UHGV virus genome: UHGV-0073333
Source of the DNA: a virus
Length of the DNA: 15,124 nt
Reading direction: 5' to 3' (one strand)
The notes under the pieces: generated by a model
The model's database searches: none
Told to the model about the DNA's origin: nothing
What the model saw: the letters and a program-made list of their open reading frames with translations, nothing else
Position numbers and translations under genes: made by a program
Shown here: positions 1-14,115 of the stretch, in pieces
Layout: every line of letters begins with the position of its first letter
Position numbering within the stretch: the first letter of the stretch is position 1

Positions 1-47
1 GGCGTTTCCGGTGGTAGCGTAACCTGCTATCTGAAGGAGGCTGCCAC

Positions 48-242
48 ATGCTGGCTACTACCCCTACCCAAAAACCGCAATTTATCTGGATTATCGCCGC
101 AGTTCGCCGCGATTGCCCGACAATTACCGCCAAAATTCATCATATTGCTGCCGAGTCTGAACGCGATGCTCGCCGTTCTCTGGTGCGCGATCACGTCTGC
201 TTTTTTGCTGGTCGTATCCGCATGGAGGTGGCACATGATTAA
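48..242 (+). CDS. Small hypothetical protein (64 aa), first gene of a translationally coupled operon; possibly Icd-like (weak recollection only)
   Basis: ATG at 48 preceded by AAGGAGG at 34-40; stop TAA 240-242 overlaps next start ATG 235. Confidence 0.55.
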   Translation: MLATTPTQKPQFIWIIAAVRRDCPTITAKIHHIAAESERDARRSLVRDHVCFFAGRIRMEVAHD

Positions 243-453
243 AACCTACGATGTGCATATGGATCCCCTCGAACGCACAAGCCAGATCATCACACTGACA
301 GAAGTGATTAACGACATTCTGGTGAGCAACTCTCCCTCACGAGACGAAAGACTGAAGGCGTTACTCGCGATATTGGATCTCGCCGTTCGTGACGTTCATT
401 TCCTGCTGGAAGGTGGCGAAATGCCAGGAAAAACGGGGGCAACCAATGAATAA
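235..453 (+). CDS. Hypothetical small protein (72 aa)
   Basis: ATG 235 with GGAGG at 224-228; in frame with ORF 145..453; start overlaps upstream stop. Confidence 0.5.
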   Translation: MIKTYDVHMDPLERTSQIITLTEVINDILVSNSPSRDERLKALLAILDLAVRDVHFLLEGGEMPGKTGATNE

Positions 454-640
454 CTCAATTAATGCCCCTCGACTTACGTCCGCACTTCAATTAATCGAGC
501 AAGCAGCGGCTGTCCTGGTTGCTGTCAGTCTTTCGGCTGAAGAAATGGACGCTGCTGATGTCGTGGATGCGATTAAAGCGTGCTCATCTTTGGTTAACGA
601 TGCTCGTGCAGAGCTGGTAATTCTTGGTGGTGAAAAATGA
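446..640 (+). CDS. Hypothetical small protein (64 aa)
   Basis: ATG 446 with GGGGG at 435-439; overlaps upstream stop at 451-453; in frame with ORF 389..640. Confidence 0.45.
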   Translation: MNNSINAPRLTSALQLIEQAAAVLVAVSLSAEEMDAADVVDAIKACSSLVNDARAELVILGGEK

Positions 641-900
641 ATATCAACTTAATTTATCGTCATCCGTGTGAGCTGGAAATTGAATCATTGCTGAGCCGTG
701 AAGAGCCATATCCAGACACATTCACTCTTGCAGATCGCACGACTGAACGGCTTACCAGAGCGCGCACAGGTCTGGTTCATGTGATGAATGAGATTCTTCC
801 ATCGGTGGGAGGGGAACAGGCGACAGTAATCACTAGCTGGCTACAAAAAGTTACCTCTCTGATAGATATCAGTTTAATCGATGCGGAGAGTGCGAAATGA
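637..900 (+). CDS. Hypothetical small protein (87 aa)
   Basis: ATGA start/stop overlap with the upstream gene at 637-640; ORF track. Confidence 0.5.
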   Translation: MNINLIYRHPCELEIESLLSREEPYPDTFTLADRTTERLTRARTGLVHVMNEILPSVGGEQATVITSWLQKVTSLIDISLIDAESAK

Positions 901-1118
901 CCAACATCCAGCTCATTGAAGCACAATGTCGCATCGAACAGGTTCAGACTGTTTTAGGGTTCTGGCTTGAAGGGGCCAGCCCCAGCAACAGAGACAAGTT
1001 AATGATTGGCGCGGTTATGTCACTGCTCAATGGCGTACCAGAAGCTATTCAGGAAGCAGACGAATTGTTGGGCAAATATGAGTTACAGAATCATTCAGGC
1101 GAGGCGAAACATGAATAA
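897..1118 (+). CDS. Hypothetical small protein (73 aa)
   Basis: ATGA overlap at 897-900; ORF track. Confidence 0.5.
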   Translation: MTNIQLIEAQCRIEQVQTVLGFWLEGASPSNRDKLMIGAVMSLLNGVPEAIQEADELLGKYELQNHSGEAKHE

Positions 1119-1713
1119 TTTCTTAACTTTCCATGCAGAAGCAACGCCTGACGGCGTAAACATCATGTACCGCAGCAACGATGGCATGACAGAACGCGTT
1201 GAGGCCGTCTCATATATTGATGCCGTAAATCGTCTGGATGCCGGGGATTATGACGATAAACCAGATGAAGGTATGTCAATACATCTCGCTATAGCCGATG
1301 GCGGCAACCAGGGATATTTCGATTACACATCACAGCATAACGTCATTATGTGGAGATGGCTGATCGCAACAGTATTCATGCTGGAAATGAGAGAGGAAAA
1401 CGGCACTGTCAGCATCATTGATGATACTGGCAATCCTTCCGAAGTGGCTGTTTATTCCAACGGCATCGTCGCCATGCCGCTGTATCCAGTAGCAGAGCGC
1501 CTCGCTATGGCAAACAACATTGAGGGCGCGATGATAGAACGTTTTGGCATCGAGTCTGGCACAGAACGCGCCATCATTTTCTACAGAGCCATGATGGATG
1601 TGGAACAAGGAGCACTGACTCCATTTGGTCGTGAAACGCTTGCTGAACTTCACAACAGCTTTATAGCTGAACTGAATGAAAACGGCATGCCAGCGGAACC
1701 AGTGACGCACTGA
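1111..1713 (+). CDS. Hypothetical protein (200 aa)
   Basis: ATG 1111 overlaps the stop of the upstream gene (coupled); in frame with ORF 1006..1713, whose longer N-terminal extension would overlap the previous gene and is not preferred. Confidence 0.55.
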   Translation: MNNFLTFHAEATPDGVNIMYRSNDGMTERVEAVSYIDAVNRLDAGDYDDKPDEGMSIHLAIADGGNQGYFDYTSQHNVIMWRWLIATVFMLEMREENGTVSIIDDTGNPSEVAVYSNGIVAMPLYPVAERLAMANNIEGAMIERFGIESGTERAIIFYRAMMDVEQGALTPFGRETLAELHNSFIAELNENGMPAEPVTH

Positions 1714-1723
1714 GGATGGAACC

Positions 1724-2065
1724 ATGATTACTAAAAATTTCCGACTGAATGCGCTGGCAAATAAGTATGCGTCGGCACTGTATAACCACATTACCTCCAC
1801 CAGCGGCGGGGACTATTTCATGGTTGATGCGGACGGCGAGGCCGTCCGTGTGGAAATCGTCAATGGAGTAAAAGGCGTTCGCAGCCTGATCGATAGCTAC
1901 ACACTGGCAGCCATGAAAGTGTTCTACCCGCAGTGGGAAACCGTGGGGATCGAGCTTCTTGATCGTTGCGTCACTAAGGACGGATTGACTGACGTCGGGC
2001 GTGAGATATGGCAAAGCATGGTTAATGACATGGGCGCAACTGTAGCGGGAGGTTCTCATGCGTGA
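1724..2065 (+). CDS. Hypothetical protein (113 aa)
   Basis: ATG 1724 with GAGGA at 1712-1716 (7-nt spacer); ORF track. Confidence 0.6.
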   Translation: MITKNFRLNALANKYASALYNHITSTSGGDYFMVDADGEAVRVEIVNGVKGVRSLIDSYTLAAMKVFYPQWETVGIELLDRCVTKDGLTDVGREIWQSMVNDMGATVAGGSHA

Positions 2066-2429
2066 AAATGCAGAAATGGCGCTTAGCTCCGCAATCGGAG
2101 AGCAGGTGGCAAAGATTGCTGGTGCTGTGTGGATTCATAACCTTCATTCTACTGGTGAAGAGAAAATGGCAATTCAGACGCCAGAGGGACGCACCATTAC
2201 TACATCTCTGAAGCCGTCAGATGTTTGTGATCTGATTTGCGCATTCATGTACCCAGCAATGAGGACTGCCCACGGCGATAAGTGGAAACTTGCGACAACC
2301 GCTGAATTTGATATGTGGCTAAACAATGATGGCATGCTGACTGATTACGGAATAACCAAGTGGCAGATGCTGGTTAGCCATATCGCAAACGCTATAGACC
2401 ACGTGGGGTACGGTGATGCGAAACATTGA
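2058..2429 (+). CDS. Hypothetical protein (123 aa)
   Basis: ATG 2058 with GGGAGG at 2047-2052; overlaps upstream stop 2063-2065; ORF track. Confidence 0.6.
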   Translation: MRENAEMALSSAIGEQVAKIAGAVWIHNLHSTGEEKMAIQTPEGRTITTSLKPSDVCDLICAFMYPAMRTAHGDKWKLATTAEFDMWLNNDGMLTDYGITKWQMLVSHIANAIDHVGYGDAKH

Positions 2430-5172
2430 TCTTATCCGTCAGGTTATCAGTGCGTCTGAAAACAACTGGCCTCATGTGCTGGGCTGCCTGAACATAAATG
2501 TCCCTGACTCTCCGCGCCGTCATGCTCCCTGCCCTGCATGTGGGGGCAAAGATCGATTCCGGTTCGATGACAACGGGCGCGGTAGCTTCATCTGTAATCA
2601 GTGCGGCGCTGGTGATGGGCTGGATTTAATTAAACGCGTAAATAACTGCGACACAACAGAGGCGGCGCTTCTTGCCGCTGATGTTCTGGGTATTGATTAC
2701 CGGACAACGGAAACACCAGAAGCCACCAGCCAGAAACGGGAACAACTGGAAACCGAGCGCCAGCGACGCGAACAGGAGCGCCTGAAAAGGGCAGAGAAGG
2801 ACGAACAACAAAGACGGGATACGTTTTCCCGTCAGTTTGATGACATGCGCAGAAAGGCTGTAAACGGCAAATCTGATTATCTGGTTGCGAAAGGGGTAGG
2901 TGATTTTACATTCCCCGTGTTGCCCGATGGATCTCTGTTGCTGGCGCTGGTGGATAAATCCGGCGCAGTAACAGCAGCACAGACTATTACCTCACATGGT
3001 GAAAAAAGACTCCTGACAGGTTCAGCAAAGCGGGGGGCATATCACGCCATAAACGCACCAGAAACAACACAGAGCATCTTAATCGCAGAAGGGCTGGCAA
3101 CGGCATTATCTGCCCATTTAATTCGTCCAGAGGCGCTGACAGTGGCGGCGATTGATGCCGGGAACCTGTTATATGTCGCCCAGGTACTGCGGGATAAATT
3201 TCCTTCAGCACAAATCATCATTGCTGCGGATAACGACCACAGCGAAGGAAGACAAAACACGGGGAGAATAGCAGCAGAAAAAGCAGCTTTATCTGTTTCT
3301 GGATGGGTGGCATTACCCCCGACAGATCACAAAGCAGACTGGAATGATTACCACCAAAAACACGGCATTAAATGCGCCACAGAAGCGTTCAATAAGTCAA
3401 TGTACCAACCACAGGGTAATGGCGTGAAACAGGAGCCACAGACCATTGAGGGAAGCGATTTTAAGGTTATGGATACCGACCCACTGAAACCAAGAATAGA
3501 AAGCCGCGAGGATGGTATTTATTGGGTATCTCCGAGAGCTGACAGCCAGAGTGGAGAAATCATCAATAACGAAAGCTGGTTATGTTCTCCGTTAAGCGTT
3601 ATCGGTACTGGCAGAGACGATAAAGACCAGTATCTCATTCTTCGCTGGCTGTCGTTTGGTTCTGAAACGCCGACAACCGCTGCCATTCCACTGGCTGATA
3701 TTGGTGAACGTGAAGGATGGCGCACACTTAAAGCTGGTGGGGTAAATGTCACGACCAAAAGCAGCCTCAGAGCAATACTGGCAGACTGGCTACAACGCAG
3801 TGGCTCTCGTGAATTGTGGCGTGTTGCTCATGCCACTGGCTGGCAATGCGGAGCGTACATCATGCCTGATGGGGAAATCATCGGAACACCTGAAAATCCT
3901 GTGCTGTTCAGCGGGAGAAGCTCAGCCGCAGCCGGATATACCGTCTTAGGGAGCGCGAAAAGCTGGCGTGATAACGTGGCGCGTCTGGCCTTTGGTAACT
4001 ATTCAATGATGACCGGGATCGGCGCAGCACTGGCAGCGCCATTGATTGGGCTGGTGGGCGCTGACGGGTTCGGCATTCATTTCTATGAGCAGTCGAGCGC
4101 AGGGAAGACCACCACGGCAAACGTGGCGAGCAGCTTATACGGCAACCCTGATTTACTGCGGCTGACGTGGTACGGAACCGCGCTGGGGCTGGCAAATGAG
4201 GCCGCCGCCCACAATGACGGACTAATGCCGCTTGATGAAGTTGGTCAGGGCGCTGATCCTGTCAGCGTTTCACAGTCTGCCTATGCGTTATTTAACGGTG
4301 TAGGGAAACTGCAAGGCGCTAAAGATGGTGGAAACCGGGATCTAAAACGTTGGCGTACAGTGGCAATCAGCACCGGAGAAATGGATTTAGAAACATTTAT
4401 CGCTACTTCCGGGCGAAAAACCAAAGCCGGGCAACTGGTGCGACTGCTGAATATTCCGTTGAGTAAAGCAGTACGCTTTCACGATTACCAGAACGGAAAA
4501 CAGCACGCAGACGCACTGAAAGACGCTTACCAGCATCACCACGGCGCGTCCGGGCGTGAGTGGATTAAATGGCTGGCAGACCACCAGCAACAGGCTATTA
4601 AAACCGTTCGTGATTGCGAAAGCAGATGGAGAAGCCTGATCCCATCCGATTATGGTGAGCAGGTTCACCGTGTAGCCGCGCGATTTGCCATTCTGGAGGC
4701 CGCATTGTTGTTAGGCGAGGTTGTAACAGGCTGGGATGCTCAGACATGCCGTGATGCGATACAGCACAGCTATAACGCATGGTTGCGCGAGTTCGGCACA
4801 GGTAACAAAGAGCATCAGCAGATTATTGAACAAACGGAGGCATTTCTTAATGCCTATGGGCTTAGCCGTTTTGCACCATTTCCATACAGCCCGGCAGATT
4901 TGCCCATCAAAGATTTAGCCGGATACCGTCAGCGTGGAGAACATGACGAAAGCCCAATGATTTTCTACACATTCCCGGCCACATTTGAAAAGGAGATCGC
5001 ATGTGGTTTCAACGCAAAACAGTTTGCTGAAGTGTTGAAAAAAGCCGGGATGCTAACCCCACCAAACAGCGGTCGTGGATACCAAAGAAAATCACCACGT
5101 ATTCAGGGACGACAAATAAACGTTTATGTACTCAATTACCAGCCAGGAGATTATAACTCATCTGAAGAATGA
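2416..5172 (+). CDS. Bifunctional primase-helicase replication initiator, P4 alpha-like (zinc ribbon + TOPRIM + P-loop NTPase)
   Basis: 918-aa ORF; CxxC...CxxC zinc ribbon (CPACGG...CNQCG); TOPRIM signatures (IAEG glutamate, AADND DxD); Walker A-like SSAGKTT; start ATG 2416 (GTG 2413 also possible) overlapping the upstream stop. Confidence 0.88.
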   Translation: MRNIDLIRQVISASENNWPHVLGCLNINVPDSPRRHAPCPACGGKDRFRFDDNGRGSFICNQCGAGDGLDLIKRVNNCDTTEAALLAADVLGIDYRTTETPEATSQKREQLETERQRREQERLKRAEKDEQQRRDTFSRQFDDMRRKAVNGKSDYLVAKGVGDFTFPVLPDGSLLLALVDKSGAVTAAQTITSHGEKRLLTGSAKRGAYHAINAPETTQSILIAEGLATALSAHLIRPEALTVAAIDAGNLLYVAQVLRDKFPSAQIIIAADNDHSEGRQNTGRIAAEKAALSVSGWVALPPTDHKADWNDYHQKHGIKCATEAFNKSMYQPQGNGVKQEPQTIEGSDFKVMDTDPLKPRIESREDGIYWVSPRADSQSGEIINNESWLCSPLSVIGTGRDDKDQYLILRWLSFGSETPTTAAIPLADIGEREGWRTLKAGGVNVTTKSSLRAILADWLQRSGSRELWRVAHATGWQCGAYIMPDGEIIGTPENPVLFSGRSSAAAGYTVLGSAKSWRDNVARLAFGNYSMMTGIGAALAAPLIGLVGADGFGIHFYEQSSAGKTTTANVASSLYGNPDLLRLTWYGTALGLANEAAAHNDGLMPLDEVGQGADPVSVSQSAYALFNGVGKLQGAKDGGNRDLKRWRTVAISTGEMDLETFIATSGRKTKAGQLVRLLNIPLSKAVRFHDYQNGKQHADALKDAYQHHHGASGREWIKWLADHQQQAIKTVRDCESRWRSLIPSDYGEQVHRVAARFAILEAALLLGEVVTGWDAQTCRDAIQHSYNAWLREFGTGNKEHQQIIEQTEAFLNAYGLSRFAPFPYSPADLPIKDLAGYRQRGEHDESPMIFYTFPATFEKEIACGFNAKQFAEVLKKAGMLTPPNSGRGYQRKSPRIQGRQINVYVLNYQPGDYNSSEE

Positions 5173-5628: not shown

Positions 5629-5662
5629 ATGCCACCAGCTACTGAGCGGTGGCATTTTTTTG
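5629..5662 (+). terminator. Rho-independent terminator closing the primase operon
   Basis: 8-bp stem ATGCCACC (5629-5636) / GGTGGCAT (5648-5655) followed by a T-run at 5656-5661. Confidence 0.7.
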
Positions 5663-5934: not shown

Positions 5935-6396
5935 ATGGAACTAAAATTTATTGATAACCCTGTGCGATTACAGGCCTTTCTTAACGAGCCAGGCAATACC
6001 GAAAATATTGTTGAGCCGGGGCACACGTACTACATCAAGCCTGATGCGGTATATCTCGGCATCTACGAAGGATTAGTGCTGGCTGGCGTTCATGAAGTGC
6101 GTAACTTCTGGCATAGCGTTGTTGAATGCCATGCGGTGTACGACCCCGGATTCCGTGGTGAATATGCACTGCAAGGGCATCGATTATTCTGCAAATGGCT
6201 TCTCGAAAACTCACCATTCCTTAACAGCATTACCATGGTTCCTGACACCACCAAATACGGACGGGCAATTATCCGTTTGCTTGGCGCTACCCGTGTTGGT
6301 CACCTTGATGATGCTTATATCAGATGTGGTAAACCCGTCGGCGTAACGCTTTATCAGTTAACTCGGCAACAATATAAGGAATTCAGCGAATGTTAA
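5935..6396 (+). CDS. Hypothetical protein (153 aa); occupies the gp14 position of a P22-type ejection cassette
   Basis: ORF track; starts 16 nt after the upstream stop; its stop overlaps the next start (ATGTTAA). Confidence 0.7.
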   Translation: MELKFIDNPVRLQAFLNEPGNTENIVEPGHTYYIKPDAVYLGIYEGLVLAGVHEVRNFWHSVVECHAVYDPGFRGEYALQGHRLFCKWLLENSPFLNSITMVPDTTKYGRAIIRLLGATRVGHLDDAYIRCGKPVGVTLYQLTRQQYKEFSEC

Positions 6397-7043
6397 TTAC
6401 CCACATAGCTCATAAACATCTCAATCGTGCCGTATACGAAAAAGGCGGTGATGGTGGTGCCTCTAAAGCTCAGGCGAAGGCCCAGCAGCAGGCAATTGAT
6501 TTGCAGCGCGAGCAGTGGAATACGGTGATGAATAATCTCAAGCCGTATGCAGAAGTCGGATTGCCTGCTTTACAACAACTACAAGGACTGATGACTCTGG
6601 AAGGGCAGAATAAAGCCGCGAATGATTTCTTTGGTTCTGGTTTATATAAAACACAGGCAGATCAGGCCCGTTATCAGAACCTTGTCTCAGCAGAAGCTAC
6701 CGGGGGGCTTGGCTCAACAGCTACCAGTAACCAGTTATCTTCCATTGCGCCCATGCTTTATAACAATTGGCTTAGTGGGCAAATGCAAAATTATGGAAAC
6801 CTGCTAAATGTCGGGATGAATGCGGCATCAGGGCAGGCAACAGCAGGGCAACTCTTGCAGGGGCTTGGCGCTATTCGTGCAGGTCAGGCGCAGCAGCCAT
6901 CCAGTCTTGCGCGTGGTATTGGTGGGGCGGCATCAGGCGCTTTAGCGGGTGCGCAACTTGGTTCCGTTGTTCCGGGTATAGGTAATGTCGCCGGGGCTAT
7001 TGGTGGTGGGCTTATTGGTCTTGTTGGGGGGCTTGGATTCTAA
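6390..7043 (+). CDS. Gly/Gln-rich protein (217 aa) with a glycine-zipper hydrophobic C-terminus; ejection-protein-like (gp7-like by position and size)
   Basis: ORF track; C-terminal GGLIGLVGGLGF; TAATG overlap with the next gene. Confidence 0.7.
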   Translation: MLITHIAHKHLNRAVYEKGGDGGASKAQAKAQQQAIDLQREQWNTVMNNLKPYAEVGLPALQQLQGLMTLEGQNKAANDFFGSGLYKTQADQARYQNLVSAEATGGLGSTATSNQLSSIAPMLYNNWLSGQMQNYGNLLNVGMNAASGQATAGQLLQGLGAIRAGQAQQPSSLARGIGGAASGALAGAQLGSVVPGIGNVAGAIGGGLIGLVGGLGF

Positions 7044-8464
7044 TGGCGACATGGCAACTTGGCGGGCTGCCTAGCATGGCACCGCAAAATGATAATGCTC
7101 CTCGTTCTTCCGTTCCTCAGCCTGTGCAGTATCAGCAGCAGCCAAACGTAGGTTTAATGGCGCTACAGGGGCTAAGAGGCGTTGCTGAGATTAATCAGCA
7201 GGCACGTCAACAACAGCGTAAAGCAGAGTTTCAGAAAGCATATGCCGGGGCTTTTGAGTCTGGAGACAGAAACAAAATGCGCAGTCTTATTTCTGAGTAT
7301 CCAGAAGAATTTGAAAGCGTTCAGAAAGGGATGGGCTTTATTGATGACGACCAGAGAAATTCTATTGGTCATCTTGCGACTAGTGCTCAAATCGCATCTT
7401 CGCTCGGAACTGGGGCATTTGGAAAATTCATAGCAGATAACGAAGATGAAATGCGTCGCTTGGGAATTTCTCCTGAGTCTGTTGCCGAAATGCATGTTAA
7501 TGATCCACAGGGATTCCAGCGGCTTGCTGGTAGTATGGCACTGTTTTCTCTCGGTCATGAGAAGTATTTCGATATCAAAGATCAAATGGAAGGTCGGGAT
7601 ATTGAGCGTGGCAAGTTGGCAGAAACAATCCGCAGCAATCAGGCTGGCGAAGCACTTCAGGCGAGAGGGCAGGATATTAGCCGAGCAAATGCGTTAACGT
7701 CAGCATATGCACCAACAGCAGCAATGCAGAATTACAATCAGTACGCTCAAATGTTAAAGGCGGATCCAGAGGGGGCGGCGGCATTTGCGGCAGCGGCTGG
7801 AATTAATACAAACGCCAAAAAATTAATGAGTGTTAGAGAAAACGATGATGGCACTGTCACAAAATACTACACAGACGGAAGTGAAGAGCAGGGAAAACTA
7901 AACCAGCCAATATCTGGAGATGGGTTTCGTCCAATAGCTTTGCCAACAGCCCAAAAGATCATGGAAAAGTCGCCAGAAGGGGCTAAAAAAGCTGCTGGAT
8001 TTGCATACAGGGTTAGGGATGCTCTTGATTCAATAGATACACTGAAAGACCAGCTTAGCCCACAGCGAGTGGCGATCATTAATAATGCTTTGGGTAATGG
8101 GACGCTGGCTAACTTAACGCTCAGCCCAATAGAGCAGCAATACGTTGTTAATGCTAATGACGCAATAATGGCAATACTCCGTCAGGAAACAGGGGCATCT
8201 ATCCTACCAGCTGAAATGTCCAAATATTATCAAATGTATTTCCCTCAGCCTGGTGATTCCACAAAAACCATTGATACCAAGCGCCGGAAGATGGAAAACC
8301 AGTTCAATTCGCTGAAAGCTGCTTCTGGTCGAGCTTATGATGCTTTGCGGGTTATTTCAGCAGTTGACAGAGGAACTTCTTCTTCGTCGCAGACATTGCC
8401 GCAATCTGAGCAGGTATCACAGCCAGCAGCCAGCAGTAATTTTTCTTCACTATGGGGTGATTAA
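7043..8464 (+). CDS. Low-complexity Gln/Ala-rich protein (473 aa); ejection/internal virion protein-like (gp20-like by position and size)
   Basis: ORF track; translationally coupled on both sides; no enzymatic motifs seen. Confidence 0.78.
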   Translation: MATWQLGGLPSMAPQNDNAPRSSVPQPVQYQQQPNVGLMALQGLRGVAEINQQARQQQRKAEFQKAYAGAFESGDRNKMRSLISEYPEEFESVQKGMGFIDDDQRNSIGHLATSAQIASSLGTGAFGKFIADNEDEMRRLGISPESVAEMHVNDPQGFQRLAGSMALFSLGHEKYFDIKDQMEGRDIERGKLAETIRSNQAGEALQARGQDISRANALTSAYAPTAAMQNYNQYAQMLKADPEGAAAFAAAAGINTNAKKLMSVRENDDGTVTKYYTDGSEEQGKLNQPISGDGFRPIALPTAQKIMEKSPEGAKKAAGFAYRVRDALDSIDTLKDQLSPQRVAIINNALGNGTLANLTLSPIEQQYVVNANDAIMAILRQETGASILPAEMSKYYQMYFPQPGDSTKTIDTKRRKMENQFNSLKAASGRAYDALRVISAVDRGTSSSSQTLPQSEQVSQPAASSNFSSLWGD

Positions 8465-10143
8465 TGGCTAAAGCATGGAAAGATGTTATCGCTTCTCCAC
8501 AGTATCAGGCGTTAGCACCAGAACAAAAAGCGCAGGCTCAAGAGCAATACTTCAATGAAGTCGTGGCCCCGCAAGCCGGAGAAAGTGTAGAGCAGGCTAA
8601 GCAGGCTTTTTATGCTGCCTATCCACTACCATCAACGAATGAAATAGACCGATCCCAATCAGCAACTCAAAATATTCAACATACATCATCTGATAATTCT
8701 CTTGCGTCAGGGTATGCAAAGTTAGCTACTCAGCAAAGAGAGGGGCTTGAGCGTTCAGCAGAACAGGGAGCCAGTCTTGGGGCTGCGATGCGCGATGCTA
8801 TAACAGGCGAAAGCCGAATGACTCCAGAGATGGAGAGACTGCAAAATGTCGCCTCTGCCCCAGAATTGAACTCACTAAGCATGGATGCCCTAAAGGCTGG
8901 ATGGTCTCAACTTTTCGGCTCTGACGCGTCTCAGGAAAAGATTCTTCAGGGAATGGGGGCGACATTAAGGCAGGATGAGAAGGGGAATACTATCGTTTCT
9001 CTGCCATCAGGTGATTATGCCCTGAACAAGCCGGGTTTATCACCGCAAGACCTGACTTCGTTTCTTGCTAATGCGTTGGCGTTTACACCAGCGGGCAGGG
9101 CTGGAACGGTGCTTGGTGCCATAGGAAAATCAGCAGCTACAGATTTAGCACTACAGGGAGCCACCAGCCTTGCTGGTGGAGAAGATATTGATCCGTTACA
9201 AACGGTAATTTCTGCTGGCATTGGTGGTATTGGTAAGGGGCTGGAAAATACAGCGAGTGCGGTTTCGAGGGCTGTTCGTGGTGATATGTCGCCTGAAGCA
9301 AAGGCTGCTGTCGACTTTGCATCGGAAAGAAATCTGCCGTTAATGACCAGTGACATGCTGAAAGATAAAACCTTTATGCAGAGTCAGGCTCAGACATTAG
9401 GCGAAAGAGTTCCTTTTTTTGGAACCGGTAAGAATCGGCTGAATCAACAACAAGCACGAGAAAATTTAGTCAGAACATTTAGCGATGGTCTGGGTGGCAT
9501 TTCTGATAAACAGCTTTATGAATCTGCGACTAAAGGGCAACAAAAATTCATTGAGGCAGCAGGAAAGCGATATAACCGCATAATTGACGCTATGGGGGAT
9601 ACCCCTGTCGATCTCTCAAACACGGTAAAAGCTATCGACAATCAGATTGCCGTGTTAAGCCGCCCGGGCAAATCTCAGGATAGAGCCGCGGTAAAAGTCT
9701 TGCAGCAATTTAAAGACGATATCACCAGCGGACCAAATGACCTGCGTCTGGCGAGGGAAAACAGAACCGATCTTCGAAAGCGATTTATGGCGTCATCTGA
9801 CACTGTTGATAAAGATACGCTCCAGAAAGCCAGCGATATTATCTACAAGGCATATACGGCGGATATGAAAAAAGCCGTAGCCAAAAATCTTGGAGCAGAC
9901 GAAGCCATTAATATGGCAAGGGTTGATCGCTCATGGTCTAAATTCAATGACATGATGGGAAGAACGCGCGTTCAAAAGGCAATAGCCAGCGGCAAGGCCA
10001 CGCCTGAGGATGTAACAAAACTCGTTTTTAGCCAAAGCCCATCAGAACGTTCTCAGCTTTACAGGCTTCTGGGTGACAATGGTAGGGAAAAAGCACCAGC
10101 AGCCATAGCTGCTGCGTTAGGCAAAACGCACGAGCGGCCATAG
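8464..10143 (+). CDS. Low-complexity Ala/Gln-rich protein (559 aa); ejection/internal virion protein-like (gp16-like by position)
   Basis: ORF track; ATG 8464 overlaps upstream stop (TAATG), GGGGTG Shine-Dalgarno-like sequence at 8451-8456. Confidence 0.78.
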   Translation: MAKAWKDVIASPQYQALAPEQKAQAQEQYFNEVVAPQAGESVEQAKQAFYAAYPLPSTNEIDRSQSATQNIQHTSSDNSLASGYAKLATQQREGLERSAEQGASLGAAMRDAITGESRMTPEMERLQNVASAPELNSLSMDALKAGWSQLFGSDASQEKILQGMGATLRQDEKGNTIVSLPSGDYALNKPGLSPQDLTSFLANALAFTPAGRAGTVLGAIGKSAATDLALQGATSLAGGEDIDPLQTVISAGIGGIGKGLENTASAVSRAVRGDMSPEAKAAVDFASERNLPLMTSDMLKDKTFMQSQAQTLGERVPFFGTGKNRLNQQQARENLVRTFSDGLGGISDKQLYESATKGQQKFIEAAGKRYNRIIDAMGDTPVDLSNTVKAIDNQIAVLSRPGKSQDRAAVKVLQQFKDDITSGPNDLRLARENRTDLRKRFMASSDTVDKDTLQKASDIIYKAYTADMKKAVAKNLGADEAINMARVDRSWSKFNDMMGRTRVQKAIASGKATPEDVTKLVFSQSPSERSQLYRLLGDNGREKAPAAIAAALGKTHERP

Positions 10144-10606: not shown

Positions 10607-10631
10607 GGTTAGCCACGGATGGCTAATTTTT
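10607..10631 (+). terminator. Rho-independent terminator of the plus-strand cargo operon
   Basis: Stem TTAGCCA (10609-10615) / TGGCTAA (10620-10626), loop CGGA, then TTTTT at 10627-10631. Confidence 0.55.
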
Positions 10632-11042
10632 GTTCTTTGCTCTCATCCACAGGTAAAGAAGGGCAAGAACAAGACAAAAAACAGAGAATAGATAACCTAC
10701 CTCATATGATGCGCCAAAAAAATTAGCTATTGATACGGGCAAAAAAGCTGAAGCGATCAAAATTGAAAGGCAAAAAATAAGACCAGTAATATAGTTTATT
10801 AAATTCTTAAATGAGAAACGTTTTGCTTGATTTATGGTCTTAGCGAACGATCGCTTAACGACGGATAAAAGCAAATAGATGGCGACAGTTGCTAATGCCC
10901 CTTTCCACCAGTCTGGATATAGTTTTGCGACAATCAGACCAAGGAAAACCATGATGACAGCCTGAGCATTCACACCAACCCTCCCTTTAGCGTTGTTTAG
11001 ATTGGCAATCATCATATATCCAAGACATGGCATTTGGTACAT
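10623..11042 (-). CDS. Small inner-membrane protein (about 139 aa, about 4 hydrophobic helices); start uncertain
   Basis: ORF track 10623..11210 begins at a TTG; first ATG is at 11042; strongly hydrophobic; AT-rich; no clear Shine-Dalgarno sequence. Confidence 0.5.
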   Translation of the reverse strand: MYQMPCLGYMMIANLNNAKGRVGVNAQAVIMVFLGLIVAKLYPDWWKGALATVAIYLLLSVVKRSFAKTINQAKRFSFKNLINYITGLIFCLSILIASAFLPVSIANFFGASYEVGYLFSVFCLVLALLYLWMRAKNKN

Positions 11043-11165
11043 AGCTTGGGTCGGGATTTCAAATCCGCCCCCGTTGATGGGGTCGTTACAGTACGCGCAT
11101 ATCCGCTTTATGTGAAACAGGAAGATTTTTCTGATATCACTGCCACAGCAAAACACCAATTTCGA

Positions 11166-11181
11166 GACAAGTACGCGCGCG
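11166..11181. repeat. 16-bp direct repeat GACAAGTACGCGCGCG, copy 1
   Basis: Exact copy at 11452-11467; partial third copy ACAGTACGCGCA at 11088-11099. Confidence 0.6.
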
Positions 11182-11451
11182 AGGGGTATCAGTTGCAAAA
11201 AATTTTGCAACTACGTCCGACCAATACACACACGATGGCGGGGGATACCATAAAACTGTTCTCTACATGAGACAGAGTGGTGGTGATGTGTTGATTATCG
11301 GCCTATATGCGCACAGGACGCGCTATGACAATGTTTTATGCGGGTACACCAATCACATGTATCTGGTGTGATAAATCGCGTTACATGACCTTTCATGTTG
11401 TGCTGGTGGTTATCACGACGTTCTGAATCTGGCTTTTGTCTGATATTTTGC

Positions 11452-11467
11452 GACAAGTACGCGCGCG
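11452..11467. repeat. 16-bp direct repeat GACAAGTACGCGCGCG, copy 2
   Basis: Exact match to 11166-11181, 286 bp apart, in a non-coding region. Confidence 0.6.
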
Positions 11468-11804
11468 TAACATCGAAATTATCGGATGGCGTATGTTGCT
11501 GGCAAGATAAAGTCGGCGTAATACAAAGGCGTTACTTGATAGCAGCAAGATTACAACAATGGTTGTTGAATTTGAGCGATGTAAGGAATTGATTTAGGGA
11601 GGCGCTGATGGCTAAAAAGTTCCACTACCAGCGGATGAATGCGCCAGCGATGGCCGTTTGGTAGTAAAAGAGGAGCCATTCCTCAATCAGTTGAATACAT
11701 TATGCCAACTAAATGGGTGGGGGCACTGTGTGGGTATTCAGCGGTGACGGTATTTTTTAAGCCAAGGACTATCCGTAGCAGGGGGACTCATTTTGAAATA
11801 TTTA

Positions 11805-12242
11805 TCATATGTAACTTATTATTTTAGATAAAGATTTCCAGTTAAAGAAAAAAGTTATCATTGATATAATCAAATATGCCCCTGCGAGTAGCAGGGCATA
11901 ATAATCCAGAGGCAGATTGCTGACAACAGGGGCAAACATCGAGATCATTGCTAATAGGCAGGCTGTGATCAGCGTAGTTCCTGTATCAAAAAGCCCCTCA
12001 ATAATGCCTTTTAGTACTCCGTTACTTTTTAGAGCGCCTACAATTCCCTTTGAACTATCAAAGCTACTTAGCATGGTGACTGATGCCAAAACAAAACCAA
12101 AGAGAACTCCAGAAATAGTTGAAAGAGCACCAGCAGCCGAAATGACAGCATTGTGATCTAGGTCGTGTAAAAAATGGGCACCAGCAATAGCCATAGCTAG
12201 AGCAAACAATGACTTGGCAGCAAACAATTTCCGAGAACTCAT
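11805..12242 (-). CDS. Small membrane protein (145 aa, 3-4 hydrophobic helices); second gene of the two-gene cargo operon
   Basis: ORF track; ATG with AGGA 7 nt upstream, 12 nt after the stop of the 361-aa gene; AT-rich. Confidence 0.75.
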   Translation of the reverse strand: MSSRKLFAAKSLFALAMAIAGAHFLHDLDHNAVISAAGALSTISGVLFGFVLASVTMLSSFDSSKGIVGALKSNGVLKGIIEGLFDTGTTLITACLLAMISMFAPVVSNLPLDYYALLLAGAYLIISMITFFFNWKSLSKIISYI

Positions 12243-12254
12243 AATGTATTCCTG

Positions 12255-13340
12255 TTACGTTTGACTAACCAAATAGTACTGGGTTAGATACCTAAGGTTG
12301 TCATTCTTTGCTTGTAGCATAGCATTTTTAACGTCAGTATCGGTCGGATACCCATCTGCTTGGATAGGCACCATCTTCTTTACCGTAAGAACTTCGTCTA
12401 CAAGACTTTTCTTCTTTTTATCGCCCTGAGCAACAACATTTGCTTTCTCAAAAGTTAAACGACCATCACCACCAGGGAACTTTTCTAGCATCTCCTTAAG
12501 GCTTTTTTTAACGTCATCCTCAAGCCATCCCTTTGCTTTTCTTTTTAATGGAGAATGTCCGCGTAACGAAATAGTCAGGTGGCTTGAACTGGTGCCTCTG
12601 ATCATCTCAATCATCTGATTCGCGAACATTCCATCGAGTTGATACTGTGCGGCATTGAAGTTTCTTGGGATGGCCACAGAAATCTCGCAGCTTCTTAGAT
12701 TGGATCCAGTTTCGAGTAGTTCTTTGATGCTTTCTTCTTTCCAAATGGCTTCAAAAGAAACAGGGACTCCGCGATCACTGGAGTTGAAAAGAAGGAAGGC
12801 TAAGTCACTATGGCGTGGACCTAAATGATTTAAAGACAATACTAGAATGTCTGTCTGAGGATAATAAATAAAGTATGTACGTTCTGAAAGAGTCTTTGCC
12901 CCGGCTAGAGGGATTTTCTCTTCCACCCACTCTTTATCTGTAATATATGCCAGTGTTGCGCTTTTTCTTCTTCGAGACATGAATCCGAAGTAGGAGCCAT
13001 CCTCGGGTGAGATGTCTAGAAAATGAATTTTAAGTTCTCTTTCACCAAAGTCTGCATAGTGGGTCATCTTGAAGTCTTTAGAACACCGATCATACAGATT
13101 TTTAAAGGCCTCTGCGGTTAACCCCTTGTTACTAGTGCGAATATTCTCAGAGCTTGTGTAAAAGCCCACCCTTACAGATTTCAAACTTTGATCTTTTGGT
13201 GCCACAGTCATTTGAGCTCCATTGTACTCTGCGATAGTTTTTGCACACCTTGAAATCAAAATCTCCATGTCAGTCACGAGAAAATAACTATGGATGAAAC
13301 CCATCAAAGGCATTGAATACAGGTGGCTTTTGAGAATCAT
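12255..13340 (-). CDS. Hypothetical soluble protein (361 aa), no recognisable catalytic motif; first gene of the two-gene cargo operon
   Basis: ORF track; about 40% GC by eye and AGA/AGG arginine codons suggest horizontal acquisition. Confidence 0.8.
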   Translation of the reverse strand: MILKSHLYSMPLMGFIHSYFLVTDMEILISRCAKTIAEYNGAQMTVAPKDQSLKSVRVGFYTSSENIRTSNKGLTAEAFKNLYDRCSKDFKMTHYADFGERELKIHFLDISPEDGSYFGFMSRRRKSATLAYITDKEWVEEKIPLAGAKTLSERTYFIYYPQTDILVLSLNHLGPRHSDLAFLLFNSSDRGVPVSFEAIWKEESIKELLETGSNLRSCEISVAIPRNFNAAQYQLDGMFANQMIEMIRGTSSSHLTISLRGHSPLKRKAKGWLEDDVKKSLKEMLEKFPGGDGRLTFEKANVVAQGDKKKKSLVDEVLTVKKMVPIQADGYPTDTDVKNAMLQAKNDNLRYLTQYYLVSQT

Positions 13341-13827: not shown

Positions 13828-14115
13828 ATGATAAGGGACAGGAAAGCTGAAGAGCTGGAGTCAAAAGGGCTATACCGGAGAGCTGCCGCACGATGGGCAG
13901 AAGTCATGATGCTGGCAAATGGCGATAAAGAACGTGAACATGCAGCAAACAGGCGCTCTGAATGTATCCGTAAGGCGGCACGCCCACCAGCAACTACAGA
14001 CAGATTCGGAGATTTAAGACAGGCAGTTAAGCGAACTCATTCGGCTCTTGGTATGGATGAGGAAGCGAGAGGGTACTTCAGGCGTTATCGCGATAAAGAT
14101 TGCCAGAGACAGTAA
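13828..14115 (+). CDS. Small basic protein (95 aa), PerC-like transcriptional regulator (family assignment tentative)
   Basis: ATG 13828 with GAGAGG at 13817-13822; TATAAT at 13809-13814; N-terminal pattern AEELESKGLYRRAAARW recalls the PerC/Pch family. Confidence 0.6.
   Translation: MIRDRKAEELESKGLYRRAAARWAEVMMLANGDKEREHAANRRSECIRKAARPPATTDRFGDLRQAVKRTHSALGMDEEARGYFRRYRDKDCQRQ

Follow-up and report, generated by a model that had tools for sequence, protein, structure and literature searches.

What does a run of eight small, overlapping genes do at the head of a primase-helicase gene? The question is raised by UHGV virus genome UHGV-0073333, a 15,124-nucleotide (nt) stretch of DNA (the window), in which the open reading frame (ORF) listing and a reading of the DNA placed eight ORFs in succession on the + strand (48-2429), followed by a primase-helicase gene. 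An original prediction had described these genes of 64 to 200 amino acids (aa) as an early or regulatory module of a satellite or phage, obligately coupled in translation, with a perhaps Icd-like first gene, seven unrecognisable ones and perhaps an anti-defence or host-takeover role; it called for coding signatures to be sought in relatives and for comparison with P4-like elements and with phage-inducible chromosomal islands (PICIs). Our analysis indicates that window positions 1-5172 are likely the immunity-controlled early/replication operon of a PICI of the EcCIMP1 family, on the build of the P4 'left operon', because ORF1 is Kil-like, isrK and C4 RNA genes lie upstream, the RNA loop and its target co-vary and the layout is that of P4. 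An antisense RNA over the ORF1 ribosome site probably switches the whole chain, including the primase. The features are listed below; related loci, some of them from other Enterobacterales and IMG/VR, carry L numbers throughout.

1-47, + strand: operon leader, with a hairpin at ~13-31, the target TCTGAAGGA at 30-38 and the Shine-Dalgarno motif GGAGG at 36-40
1-453, + strand: 3' part of the long read-through ORF, in frame 1, which is without a stop over 1-453
48-242, + strand: ORF1, 64 aa, predicted Icd-like / P4 Kil-like first cistron
235-453, + strand: ORF2, 72 aa, function unassigned; WP_000598361.1 in L008
446-640, + strand: ORF3, 64 aa, PGAP WP_001065661.1
637-900, + strand: ORF4, 87 aa, among the more widely kept cassettes
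897-1118, + strand: ORF5, 73 aa, phrog_20558
1111-1713, + strand: ORF6, 200 aa, phrog_1515
1724-2065, + strand: ORF7, 113 aa, phrog_37628; the only cistron after a gap (10 nt)
2058-2429, + strand: ORF8, 123 aa, distant ORF7 paralogue; shares its final 14 nt with the start of the primase gene
2416-5172, + strand: primase-helicase, 918 aa, the last cistron of the chain; ATG at 2416, GTG at 2413 also possible

The coordinates agree with the eight small genes originally described, and 'nearly every' stop does overlap the next start: seven of the eight junctions in the chain overlap, by 4, 8 or 14 nt. Eight nucleotides are shared by ORF1 and ORF2 (ATGATTAA), by ORF2 and ORF3 and again by ORF5 and ORF6 (ATGAATAA in both), and by ORF7 and ORF8 (ATGCGTGA); ORF3/ORF4 and ORF4/ORF5 share 4 nt each (ATGA), ORF8 and the primase gene share 14 nt, and 10 nt separate ORF6 from ORF7. 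A Shine-Dalgarno motif of the GGAGG/GAGG/GGTG type was read 4-8 nt 5' of every start. On the + strand of 1-2429 neither a promoter-like nor an intrinsic terminator-like site was found, the terminator-like sites on that strand being a weak one at 4060-4074, within the primase gene, and one at 5638-5653. Such overlaps are ordinary in the operons of phages and satellites; real as it is, the arrangement is not unusual in itself.

The first cistron was recognisable. ORF1 matched the NCBIfam model NF033153 (Icd-like) over residues 12-59 (71.7 bits, family cutoff 25; E = 3.7e-20), in line with the resemblance first suggested, and also phrog_1743 (E = 1.8e-12). In BLASTP, 57 aa of it were 44% identical (E = 4e-9) to P4 kil, a 65-aa ORF at the end of what was formerly read as the 'cI' frame. 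ORF1 is, on these matches, an Icd-like protein and a predicted homologue of P4 Kil. P4 Kil inhibits cell division or is toxic when expressed. Relatives of ORF1, P1 Icd included, are cell-division inhibitors or killers (PMC8198154).

Directly upstream of the operon in relatives, Rfam identified the genes of two RNAs, isrK (P4 seqA-like; 67.1 bits) and the C4/CI antisense RNA (79.5 bits), and the same pair occurs in Kosakonia and Enterobacter relatives and in P4. The C4 family, RF01695, scored 72.9-81.6 bits in L001, L004, L005, L010, L012 and P4 (gathering threshold 45). The match at L001 13907-13994 corresponds to window positions -93 to -6, the C4 gene ending 6 nt before position 1. Alignment of the leaders placed the loop of the second C4 hairpin in exact complementarity to 8-10 nt that abut or overlap the ORF1 Shine-Dalgarno motif. 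The window-type C4 loop, TCCTTCAGA, is perfectly complementary to TCTGAAGGA at 30-38, overlapping the Shine-Dalgarno motif at 36-40, and this loop is carried by L008 and L009, the leaders of which are identical to that of the window. The P4 leader is laid out likewise (TTCACAGGAGGCTGCC..ATG(kil)), with seqA in the isrK-like region. The chain of overlaps gains a concrete regulatory rationale, because 30-38 is the predicted C4 target on the ORF1 ribosome-binding site.

Across the related elements the loop changed in step with its downstream target and usually also with a third copy in isrK, giving at least 10 specificities among 30 distinct loci. Beside the window's own loop/target type (TCCTTCAGA / TCTGAAGGA) we found TCCATTCGA / TCGAATGGA, TCCTTGTAC / GTACAAGGA, TCTGTGGAA / TTCCACAGA, TCTCTGATTC / GAATCAGAG and TCCTTTGTGT / ACACAAAGGA, as well as the loops CTATACAG, CCATTGAG and CCATACAGT, each paired with its complement. 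In P4 the loop is TCCTGTGAA and seqC, TTCACAGGA, abuts the GGAGGCTGCC-ATG of kil. L002, in which 14001-14047 corresponds to window 1-47, is 99.8% identical over 2.5 kb and has the target specificity TCGAATGGA. Because L002 differs almost only in the C4 target and hairpin, the immunity determinant appears to have been exchanged by recombination, independently of the downstream genes.

Other features of the leader and of the RNA genes were noted. Two of them stand between C4 and the target: GGTGGTAGC (10-18), the complement of the C4 3' end (GCTACCACC), and a small hairpin, TAGC-N7-GCTA (15-29). Comparison of L001-L011 showed that the hairpin changes in sequence with its pairing kept in other elements (GGGAA..TTCCC, TGAT..ATCA, GGTT..AACC); the features at 10-31 possibly form an alternative structure or a processing signal. 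The 3' end of isrK (L008 1324-1344) has an intrinsic-terminator-like hairpin and a T-run, as in Salmonella. A perfect TATAAT stands ~15 nt upstream of C4 (L001 13886-13891), owing to which C4 may have a promoter of its own besides being processed from read-through transcripts.

The carrier of this operon was identified from its complete relatives. The 2.5-kb region was present in 570 of 5426 complete E. coli genomes (~10%), and the flanks in two genomes placed the island at tRNA-Thr, next to proA. From there the order is integrase, AlpA, PM1773-family protein, AntA/AntB antirepressor, DUF4222, isrK, C4 and icd, and then the small ORFs, primase, DUF2824, ejection genes of the P22 gp7/gp20/gp16 type, a variable region and PerC; L001, L002 and L045 all run from tRNA-Thr, int and AlpA (PF05930, E = 7e-20) to primase, DUF2824, ejection genes and PerC. 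These are the gene features by which Gram-negative PICIs are defined, namely an int and alpA end, a primase, a fixed site, a length of ~10-20 kb and no full virion set. EcCIMP1 (NZ_CP139039) has the same accessions for ORF1 and ORF3-8 (WP_001304881, WP_001065661, WP_001024679, WP_000181940, WP_001058743, WP_000628966 and WP_001208877) as L001 and L002, the ORFs of which are 100% identical to those of the window. By this identity of genes we assign the window to the EcCIMP1 family of PICIs. EcCIMP1 is the PICI of E. coli MP1 (Pick, Stadel and Raivio, ISME J 2025; PMC11773190), and its induction and transfer by the P22-like helper Kapi1, for which alpA is needed, have been shown experimentally (PMC11773190). 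Helper-dependent excision, replication and transfer of the window's copy would be expected by likeness to EcCIMP1.

The EcCIMP1 paper lists these genes as hypotheticals and an 'Ash family protein', with Icd, C4/isrK and RNA immunity unmentioned (PMC11773190). Beyond the tRNA-Thr/proA site, the gene order and the accessions for ORF1 and ORF3-8, which are the same, the window differs from EcCIMP1 in its distal part, where the gp16-like gene is perhaps truncated and other accessory genes occupy 10.6-13.3 kb.

Comparison with P4-like elements and PICIs thus yielded both a P4-type front end and the EcCIMP1 identity, and the satellite early operon ending in a primase-helicase that had been supposed is borne out as part of an EcCIMP1-family island with P4-like parts. 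The P4 left operon has the same succession of a seqA-like RNA, the C4/CI RNA, a target abutting GGAGGCTGCC-ATG, a Kil/Icd cistron of ~65 aa, small overlapping ORFs and a primase-helicase. Its genes run kil, epsilon, orf151, cnr, alpha; kil and epsilon share 8 nt, as do epsilon and orf151, and the first cistrons here likewise overlap by 8 nt. In contrast to P4, the intervening genes are unrelated, with no epsilon, orf151 or significant cnr, the C-terminal part of the primase is of the DUF927 type, and the long ORF of this lineage stops with ORF2 rather than with the kil homologue. Whereas P4 has sid, delta and psu, none was annotated in the complete islands L001, L002 and L045 (by annotation and by Pfam scans limited to the listed ORFs), and the element has P22-type ejection genes instead; the helper of EcCIMP1 is P22-like (PMC11773190).

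Two further systems share this front end. In immI of P1/P7 a C4-family RNA from the same transcript region acts just downstream, icd comes first and later expression depends on it (PMC8198154). Unlike the window, P1 has as its cargo an antirepressor (ant1/2) and not small ORFs and a primase, and the window type has a single specificity loop, as in P4. Citron and Schuster are said to have described, in 1990, two elements (a' and b') in P1 C4. The Rfam c4-a1b1 model was reached by L010 and L012 only. In Gifsy-1 of Salmonella, isrK is followed by a processed C4-like region (STnc1160), and anrP translation requires an upstream ORF coupled to it by an AUGA overlap; there, in contrast, IsrK activates translation in trans and the cargo is the antirepressor-like AnrP, with no primase operon (PMC4825925). 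IsrK is a structural homologue of SeqA, and in P4 the pairing of CI RNA with seqA and seqC leads to premature termination, by which the replication genes are kept off (PMC4825925).

A second reading frame crosses the whole control region. In L002, L009 and L015 a long ORF of 355 aa, annotated by PGAP as 'ash family protein', begins at the DUF4222 stop, passes through isrK and C4 and then, in the +1 frame, through ORF1, and shares its stop with ORF2. Every distinct locus has a long frame that runs without a stop from the end of DUF4222 over isrK, C4 and the leader, to close at the ORF1 or the ORF2 stop; upstream of the icd ATG it is open for 80 (in a locus cut short) to 234 codons in 22 distinct sequences of the ORF2 type, and the 8 elements that lack ORF2 have an icd frame open over 174-268 codons. 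Pfam Phage_ASH covers aa 124-232 of the long ORF, which is isrK and C4 DNA. The Ash domain (PF10554) at L002 13755-14081 (window ~-246 to 81) coincides with the isrK and C4 genes, and that of P4 (L042 8168-8584) coincides with the obsolete 'cI protein' ORF. The 'Ash' protein family looks to be largely a translation of conserved RNA genes.

Within the overlap with ORF1 the long ORF showed 8 synonymous vs 45 non-synonymous changes and so is unconserved as protein across ORF1, and its N-terminal 122 aa are unconserved outside the E. coli type. Given an unconserved N-terminus, an Ash domain that is RNA genes and a non-coding-like stretch over ORF1, we rejected the long ORF as an ordinary protein gene; for the same reasons the property selected in this frame seems to be its openness, that is, the transit of ribosomes. 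We liken it to P4 eta, as without ORF2 it ends at the ORF1 stop, presumably the arrangement of P4 eta and kil. Forti et al. are said to have reported in 1999 that P4 transcription becomes insensitive to immunity when eta is translated from a promoter upstream, that kil has 65 aa and that translation prevents termination at timm. An eta-like role of the long ORF is plausible here.

A course of regulation may be drawn by analogy with CI RNA/seqA/seqC/kil of P4, c4-icd-ant of P1 and isrK-orf45-anrP of Gifsy-1. In the resident state, C4 RNA would pair with the target and block translation of ORF1; the untranslated message would end prematurely, or the downstream cistrons would stay untranslated, and ORF2-8 and the primase would all be off. 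A helper phage would induce AlpA-driven transcription from upstream, and ribosomes on the long read-through ORF would then cross the RNA genes and the target, so that the block would be bypassed and the coupled chain expressed.

Several points weigh against the immunity-controlled operon. The C4 gene lies outside the window and the nearest full-length relative, L002, has a different loop/target specificity, for which reasons the window's own C4 is taken from L008 and L009, with their identical leaders. The obligate coupling originally supposed need not hold, and coupling may be partial, because each start is preceded by a Shine-Dalgarno-like motif and a gap stands at one junction. The RNA block, Rho-type polarity, coupling and bypass through the long ORF are all steps that we infer. 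The published account of Gram-negative PICIs, EcCIMP1 included, has AlpA as master regulator with RNA immunity unmentioned (PMC11773190); the RNA module could be vestigial or serve in another role. Finally, ORF2-8 are without a function assignable from profile and structure searches. A stronger version of the P4-type operon, which we put forward as a tentative possibility, is that EcCIMP1 PICIs have a working P4-type RNA switch with many exchangeable specificities, in which one ribosome-binding site gates the cassettes and the primase and the long ORF, its stop moved from kil to ORF2, provides a helper-triggered bypass.

Known biology explains most of the locus, which chiefly ties an island of recent description to a mechanism long studied and well understood. 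The points added are the link between EcCIMP1 and P4 RNA immunity with its many specificities, the reading of 'Ash' as translated RNA genes, the frame-switching read-through ORF, an ORF2 that is often omitted from annotations and the paralogy of ORF7 and ORF8. Gram-negative PICIs are usually presented without repressor-type immunity, AlpA alone being the switch. If isrK/C4/icd works as in P4, PICIs and P4-like satellites would share one RNA-based replication control, and the loop/target specificities would be incompatibility or immunity groups among islands that are often co-resident in E. coli.

Coding evidence for the small ORFs was obtained from relatives, with dN/dS (non-synonymous to synonymous substitution rate ratio) calculated by the Nei-Gojobori method against diverged copies. 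The ratio was 0.12-0.27 for ORF1, 0.08-0.16 for ORF3 (on few sites), 0.34-0.41 for ORF5, 0.16-0.29 for ORF6 and 0.11 for ORF8. For ORF7 it was 0.14-0.41, with one near-identical pair, differing by 3 substitutions only, at 0.60. For ORF4, dN was 0.33-0.41 with dS near or at saturation, giving a ratio of 0.20 where it could be computed; three close pairs (~12 substitutions each) gave 0.50-0.75. Pooled single-nucleotide polymorphisms (SNPs) fell at the third codon position of the called frame in 42 of 63 cases for ORF8, 27 of 47 for ORF1, 7 of 12 for ORF2 and 6 of 11 for ORF3, and the other two frames were non-coding-like, without a third-position excess. In the ORF2 frame, 7 SNPs were synonymous and 4 non-synonymous, against 1-2 synonymous in the other frames. 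A homologue of ORF2, 37-39% identical, was found in the IMG/VR loci L024-L027 with the same Met start and the same 8-nt overlap with icd, and ORF3 has relatives of 64 aa at 41-73% identity. Distant-mode DNA searches of E. coli for diverged copies of ORF2/3 and ORF8 returned only copies at least 97% identical, and the diverged copies were supplied by IMG/VR instead; a database of 5.8 billion proteins held only near-identical relatives of ORF2. With coding signatures or diverged homologues for each, all eight ORFs are real genes, which is what the original prediction had staked its module on. RefSeq/PGAP labels ORF1 as Icd-like and ORF3-8 as hypothetical proteins. ORF2 is called separately in some genomes only and elsewhere is swallowed by the 355-aa 'ash family' ORF.

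The cistrons between ORF1 and the primase differ in their distribution. ORF2 and ORF3, which occur in 490 E. coli genomes at 97-100% identity, are confined to this E. coli lineage, apart from the diverged ORF2 of L024-L027, and ORF8 was found in 252 genomes, roughly one in two of the E. coli copies. ORF4, ORF5, ORF6 and ORF7 are widespread and each individually dispensable. ORF4 has homologues 55-62% identical in Kosakonia, Enterobacter and other E. coli elements. ORF5 matched phrog_20558 (E = 2.9e-9) and has homologues 31-48% identical in L005, L006 (two tandem copies) and L024-L027. Temperate phages have the ORF6 family (phrog_1515) in their early-left regions too, namely phiP27, Stx phages and Klebsiella phages. 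ORF7 matched phrog_37628 (E = 2.2e-49); its homologues, of 55-96% identity, lie directly upstream of three different primase types, and it is a distant paralogue of ORF8 (hhalign 73%, E = 3e-5). Other elements carry other small ORFs, of 59, 104, 77, 65 or 75 aa, among which an ORF of 59-68 aa clusters with the ORF4 family. Tallied from coordinates across 8 gene-content variants, 41 of 49 junctions overlapped, the 4- and 8-nt overlaps persisting, and gaps stood only before ORF7 or, where ORF7/8 are missing, before the primase. ORF2-8 are, by this comparison, mosaic and interchangeable accessory cassettes, in which overlapping junctions are kept while the content varies.

Names carried by some relatives are misleading. 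ORF4 homologues are called 'nicotinic acetylcholine receptor subunit beta' in several genomes, and a 104-aa cassette beside an ORF4 homologue (L011, L013, L014) is called 'ubiquinol-cytochrome C reductase', evident annotation errors spread by name transfer.

As originally reported, the seven genes after ORF1 are not recognisable. ORF2-8 matched no family of known function in Pfam, PHROG, NCBIfam or PADLOC, and ORF3 had no family match above threshold. Fold searches of the ORFs returned generic helical bundles only, with no significant match to characterised proteins, and no ORF had a meaningful match to the PADLOC defence models. Sub-threshold matches of ORF3 to TY-Chap1 (16.9 bits, cutoff 27), of ORF8 to PTPS/DUF6952 and of ORF7 to GldM were discarded as noise. 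ORF2-5 were also tried as tandem paralogues by all-against-all BLASTP and rejected, with marginal cross-matches only (E of at least 0.006 in a tiny database). The array nonetheless amounts to seven proteins behind preserved junctions, candidates for replication control, helper manipulation or host takeover.

The first of these roles is the alternative that survives best, and we regard it as possible, if doubtful, that ORF6, ORF7 and ORF8, perhaps with further ORFs, assist or control the primase-helicase in replication, with the primase overlap setting stoichiometry. They would then be functional counterparts of P4 Cnr, which regulates alpha and whose gene lies just before that of alpha. The primase has Zn-ribbon, Toprim and DUF927 domains (PF08273, PF13362, PF06048) and matched phrog_1139 at E = 2e-177; across the elements, primases of the DUF927, 'P4 family' and DUF5906 types were found. 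At least one of the ORF6, ORF7 and ORF8 families always lies directly upstream of the primase gene, whichever the type, ORF6 taking this place where ORF7/8 are missing. This position makes the ORF6 and ORF7/8 families the foremost candidates for modulating the primase or replication. Their paralogy favours such a role for ORF7 and ORF8, as does the nearly invariant C terminus of ORF8 (VGYGDAKH) over the primase start, although that invariance may merely reflect the overlapping primase N terminus. Of the P4-like satellites, 90% have a gene of the cnr family in the interval from epsilon to alpha, where 61% also have another gene, of 75 aa (PMC8628076). Identity of ORF6 with P4 Cnr (DUF5375, PF17345), which P4 ORF106 represents, was rejected and kept as a weak lead: three ORF6 relatives carry a precomputed DUF5375 Pfam flag, and a faint match of Cnr 43-75 to ORF6 ~128-172 (window 132-163) was consistent in position in all nine members compared, but hmmscan of 46 ORF6 family members gave no DUF5375 match and the hhalign probability was 2%. 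ORF7 and ORF8 had no similarity to Cnr (hhalign 0.2%). Elements without ORF7/8 (L005, L007, L009) or without ORF6 (L011-L013) also exist, so that neither is individually essential.

A motif of the form G-x-L-T-x-x-G-R/I-E/x... recurs near the C-terminal helices of ORF6 (165-180), ORF7 (84-99) and ORF8 (90-105). It aligns loosely with P4 Cnr 73-98, insignificantly in statistical terms for ORF6 and Cnr. The shared motif may mark a common superfamily of primase-proximal proteins.

Less well placed, and in our view unlikely, is the idea that ORF2-8 are mainly anti-defence or host-takeover effectors, the operon being merely their delivery vehicle. Gene content is mosaic between otherwise related elements, and in L024-L027 ORF2 has diverged to 37-39% identity where ORF1 stands at ~80% and ORF8 at ~87%; the occurrence of ORF6 relatives in early-left accessory regions of temperate phages and the killers among ORF1 relatives (PMC8198154) point the same way. 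The suggestion of such a role, made in the original prediction, received no positive support from the profile and fold searches of the ORFs: no significant match was obtained to characterised anti-defence or takeover proteins or to defence models, though no dedicated anti-defence profile search was made, and the folds were generic. An effector cargo is in any case compatible with an RNA-gated operon.

ORF2 may be a cistron of its own within the coupled chain, the end of the long read-through ORF, or the two at once. That it is only the C-terminal tail of the long 'ash' ORF, and that ORF2/ORF3 are perhaps non-functional, lineage-specific filler, strikes us as rather improbable. PGAP mostly calls the 355-aa ORF without a separate ORF2, which is missing from many annotations, that of EcCIMP1 included; all elements with ORF2 have the long frame open, both ORFs are near-identical within a single lineage, and ORF2 has very few database relatives. 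Yet conservation with L024-L027 begins exactly at Met235, the ORF2 start (MIKTYDV vs MLKTYDL), upstream of which the long frame is non-coding-like, and ORF2 has its own GGAGG, 6 nt upstream of an ATG that overlaps the ORF1 stop by 8 nt. ORF3, for its part, has 64-aa relatives down to 41% identity. Nested genes, like eta and kil of P4, would reconcile the two readings.

We also give little credence to the proposal that some small ORFs act on the helper, by derepression or interference, like P4 epsilon, and so account for the reported effects of EcCIMP1 on Kapi1: P4 epsilon does sit at the equivalent position, straight after kil and with the same 8-nt overlap, but none of the eight ORFs matched its family (Derepression, PF25738), to which P4 epsilon itself matched at E = 9e-51, and an AntA/AntB antirepressor is already present upstream on the island.

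Downstream of the immunity-controlled operon, the window holds a set of helper-type genes at 5935-10143: DUF2824 (P22 gp14-like), P22 gp7, a gp20-type injectosome translocase and a gp16-like ORF. These are copies of DNA-ejection proteins of the helper type on a satellite without capsid or tail genes. The gp16-like ORF has 559 aa here vs ~700-900 aa in L001 and EcCIMP1 and may be truncated. Kosakonia and Cedecea relatives have the int-alpA RNA motif of Rfam in the stretch from the integrase gene to alpA (L004 2381-2444; L006 1369-1437). A low-GC (~0.41) variable region on the - strand (10623-13340) has ORFs of 195 aa and 145 aa (membrane-like) and of 361 aa, the three without a Pfam or PADLOC match. 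The same region holds different genes in other copies, an Abi family protein in L001 among them, and is a candidate accessory or defence hotspot.

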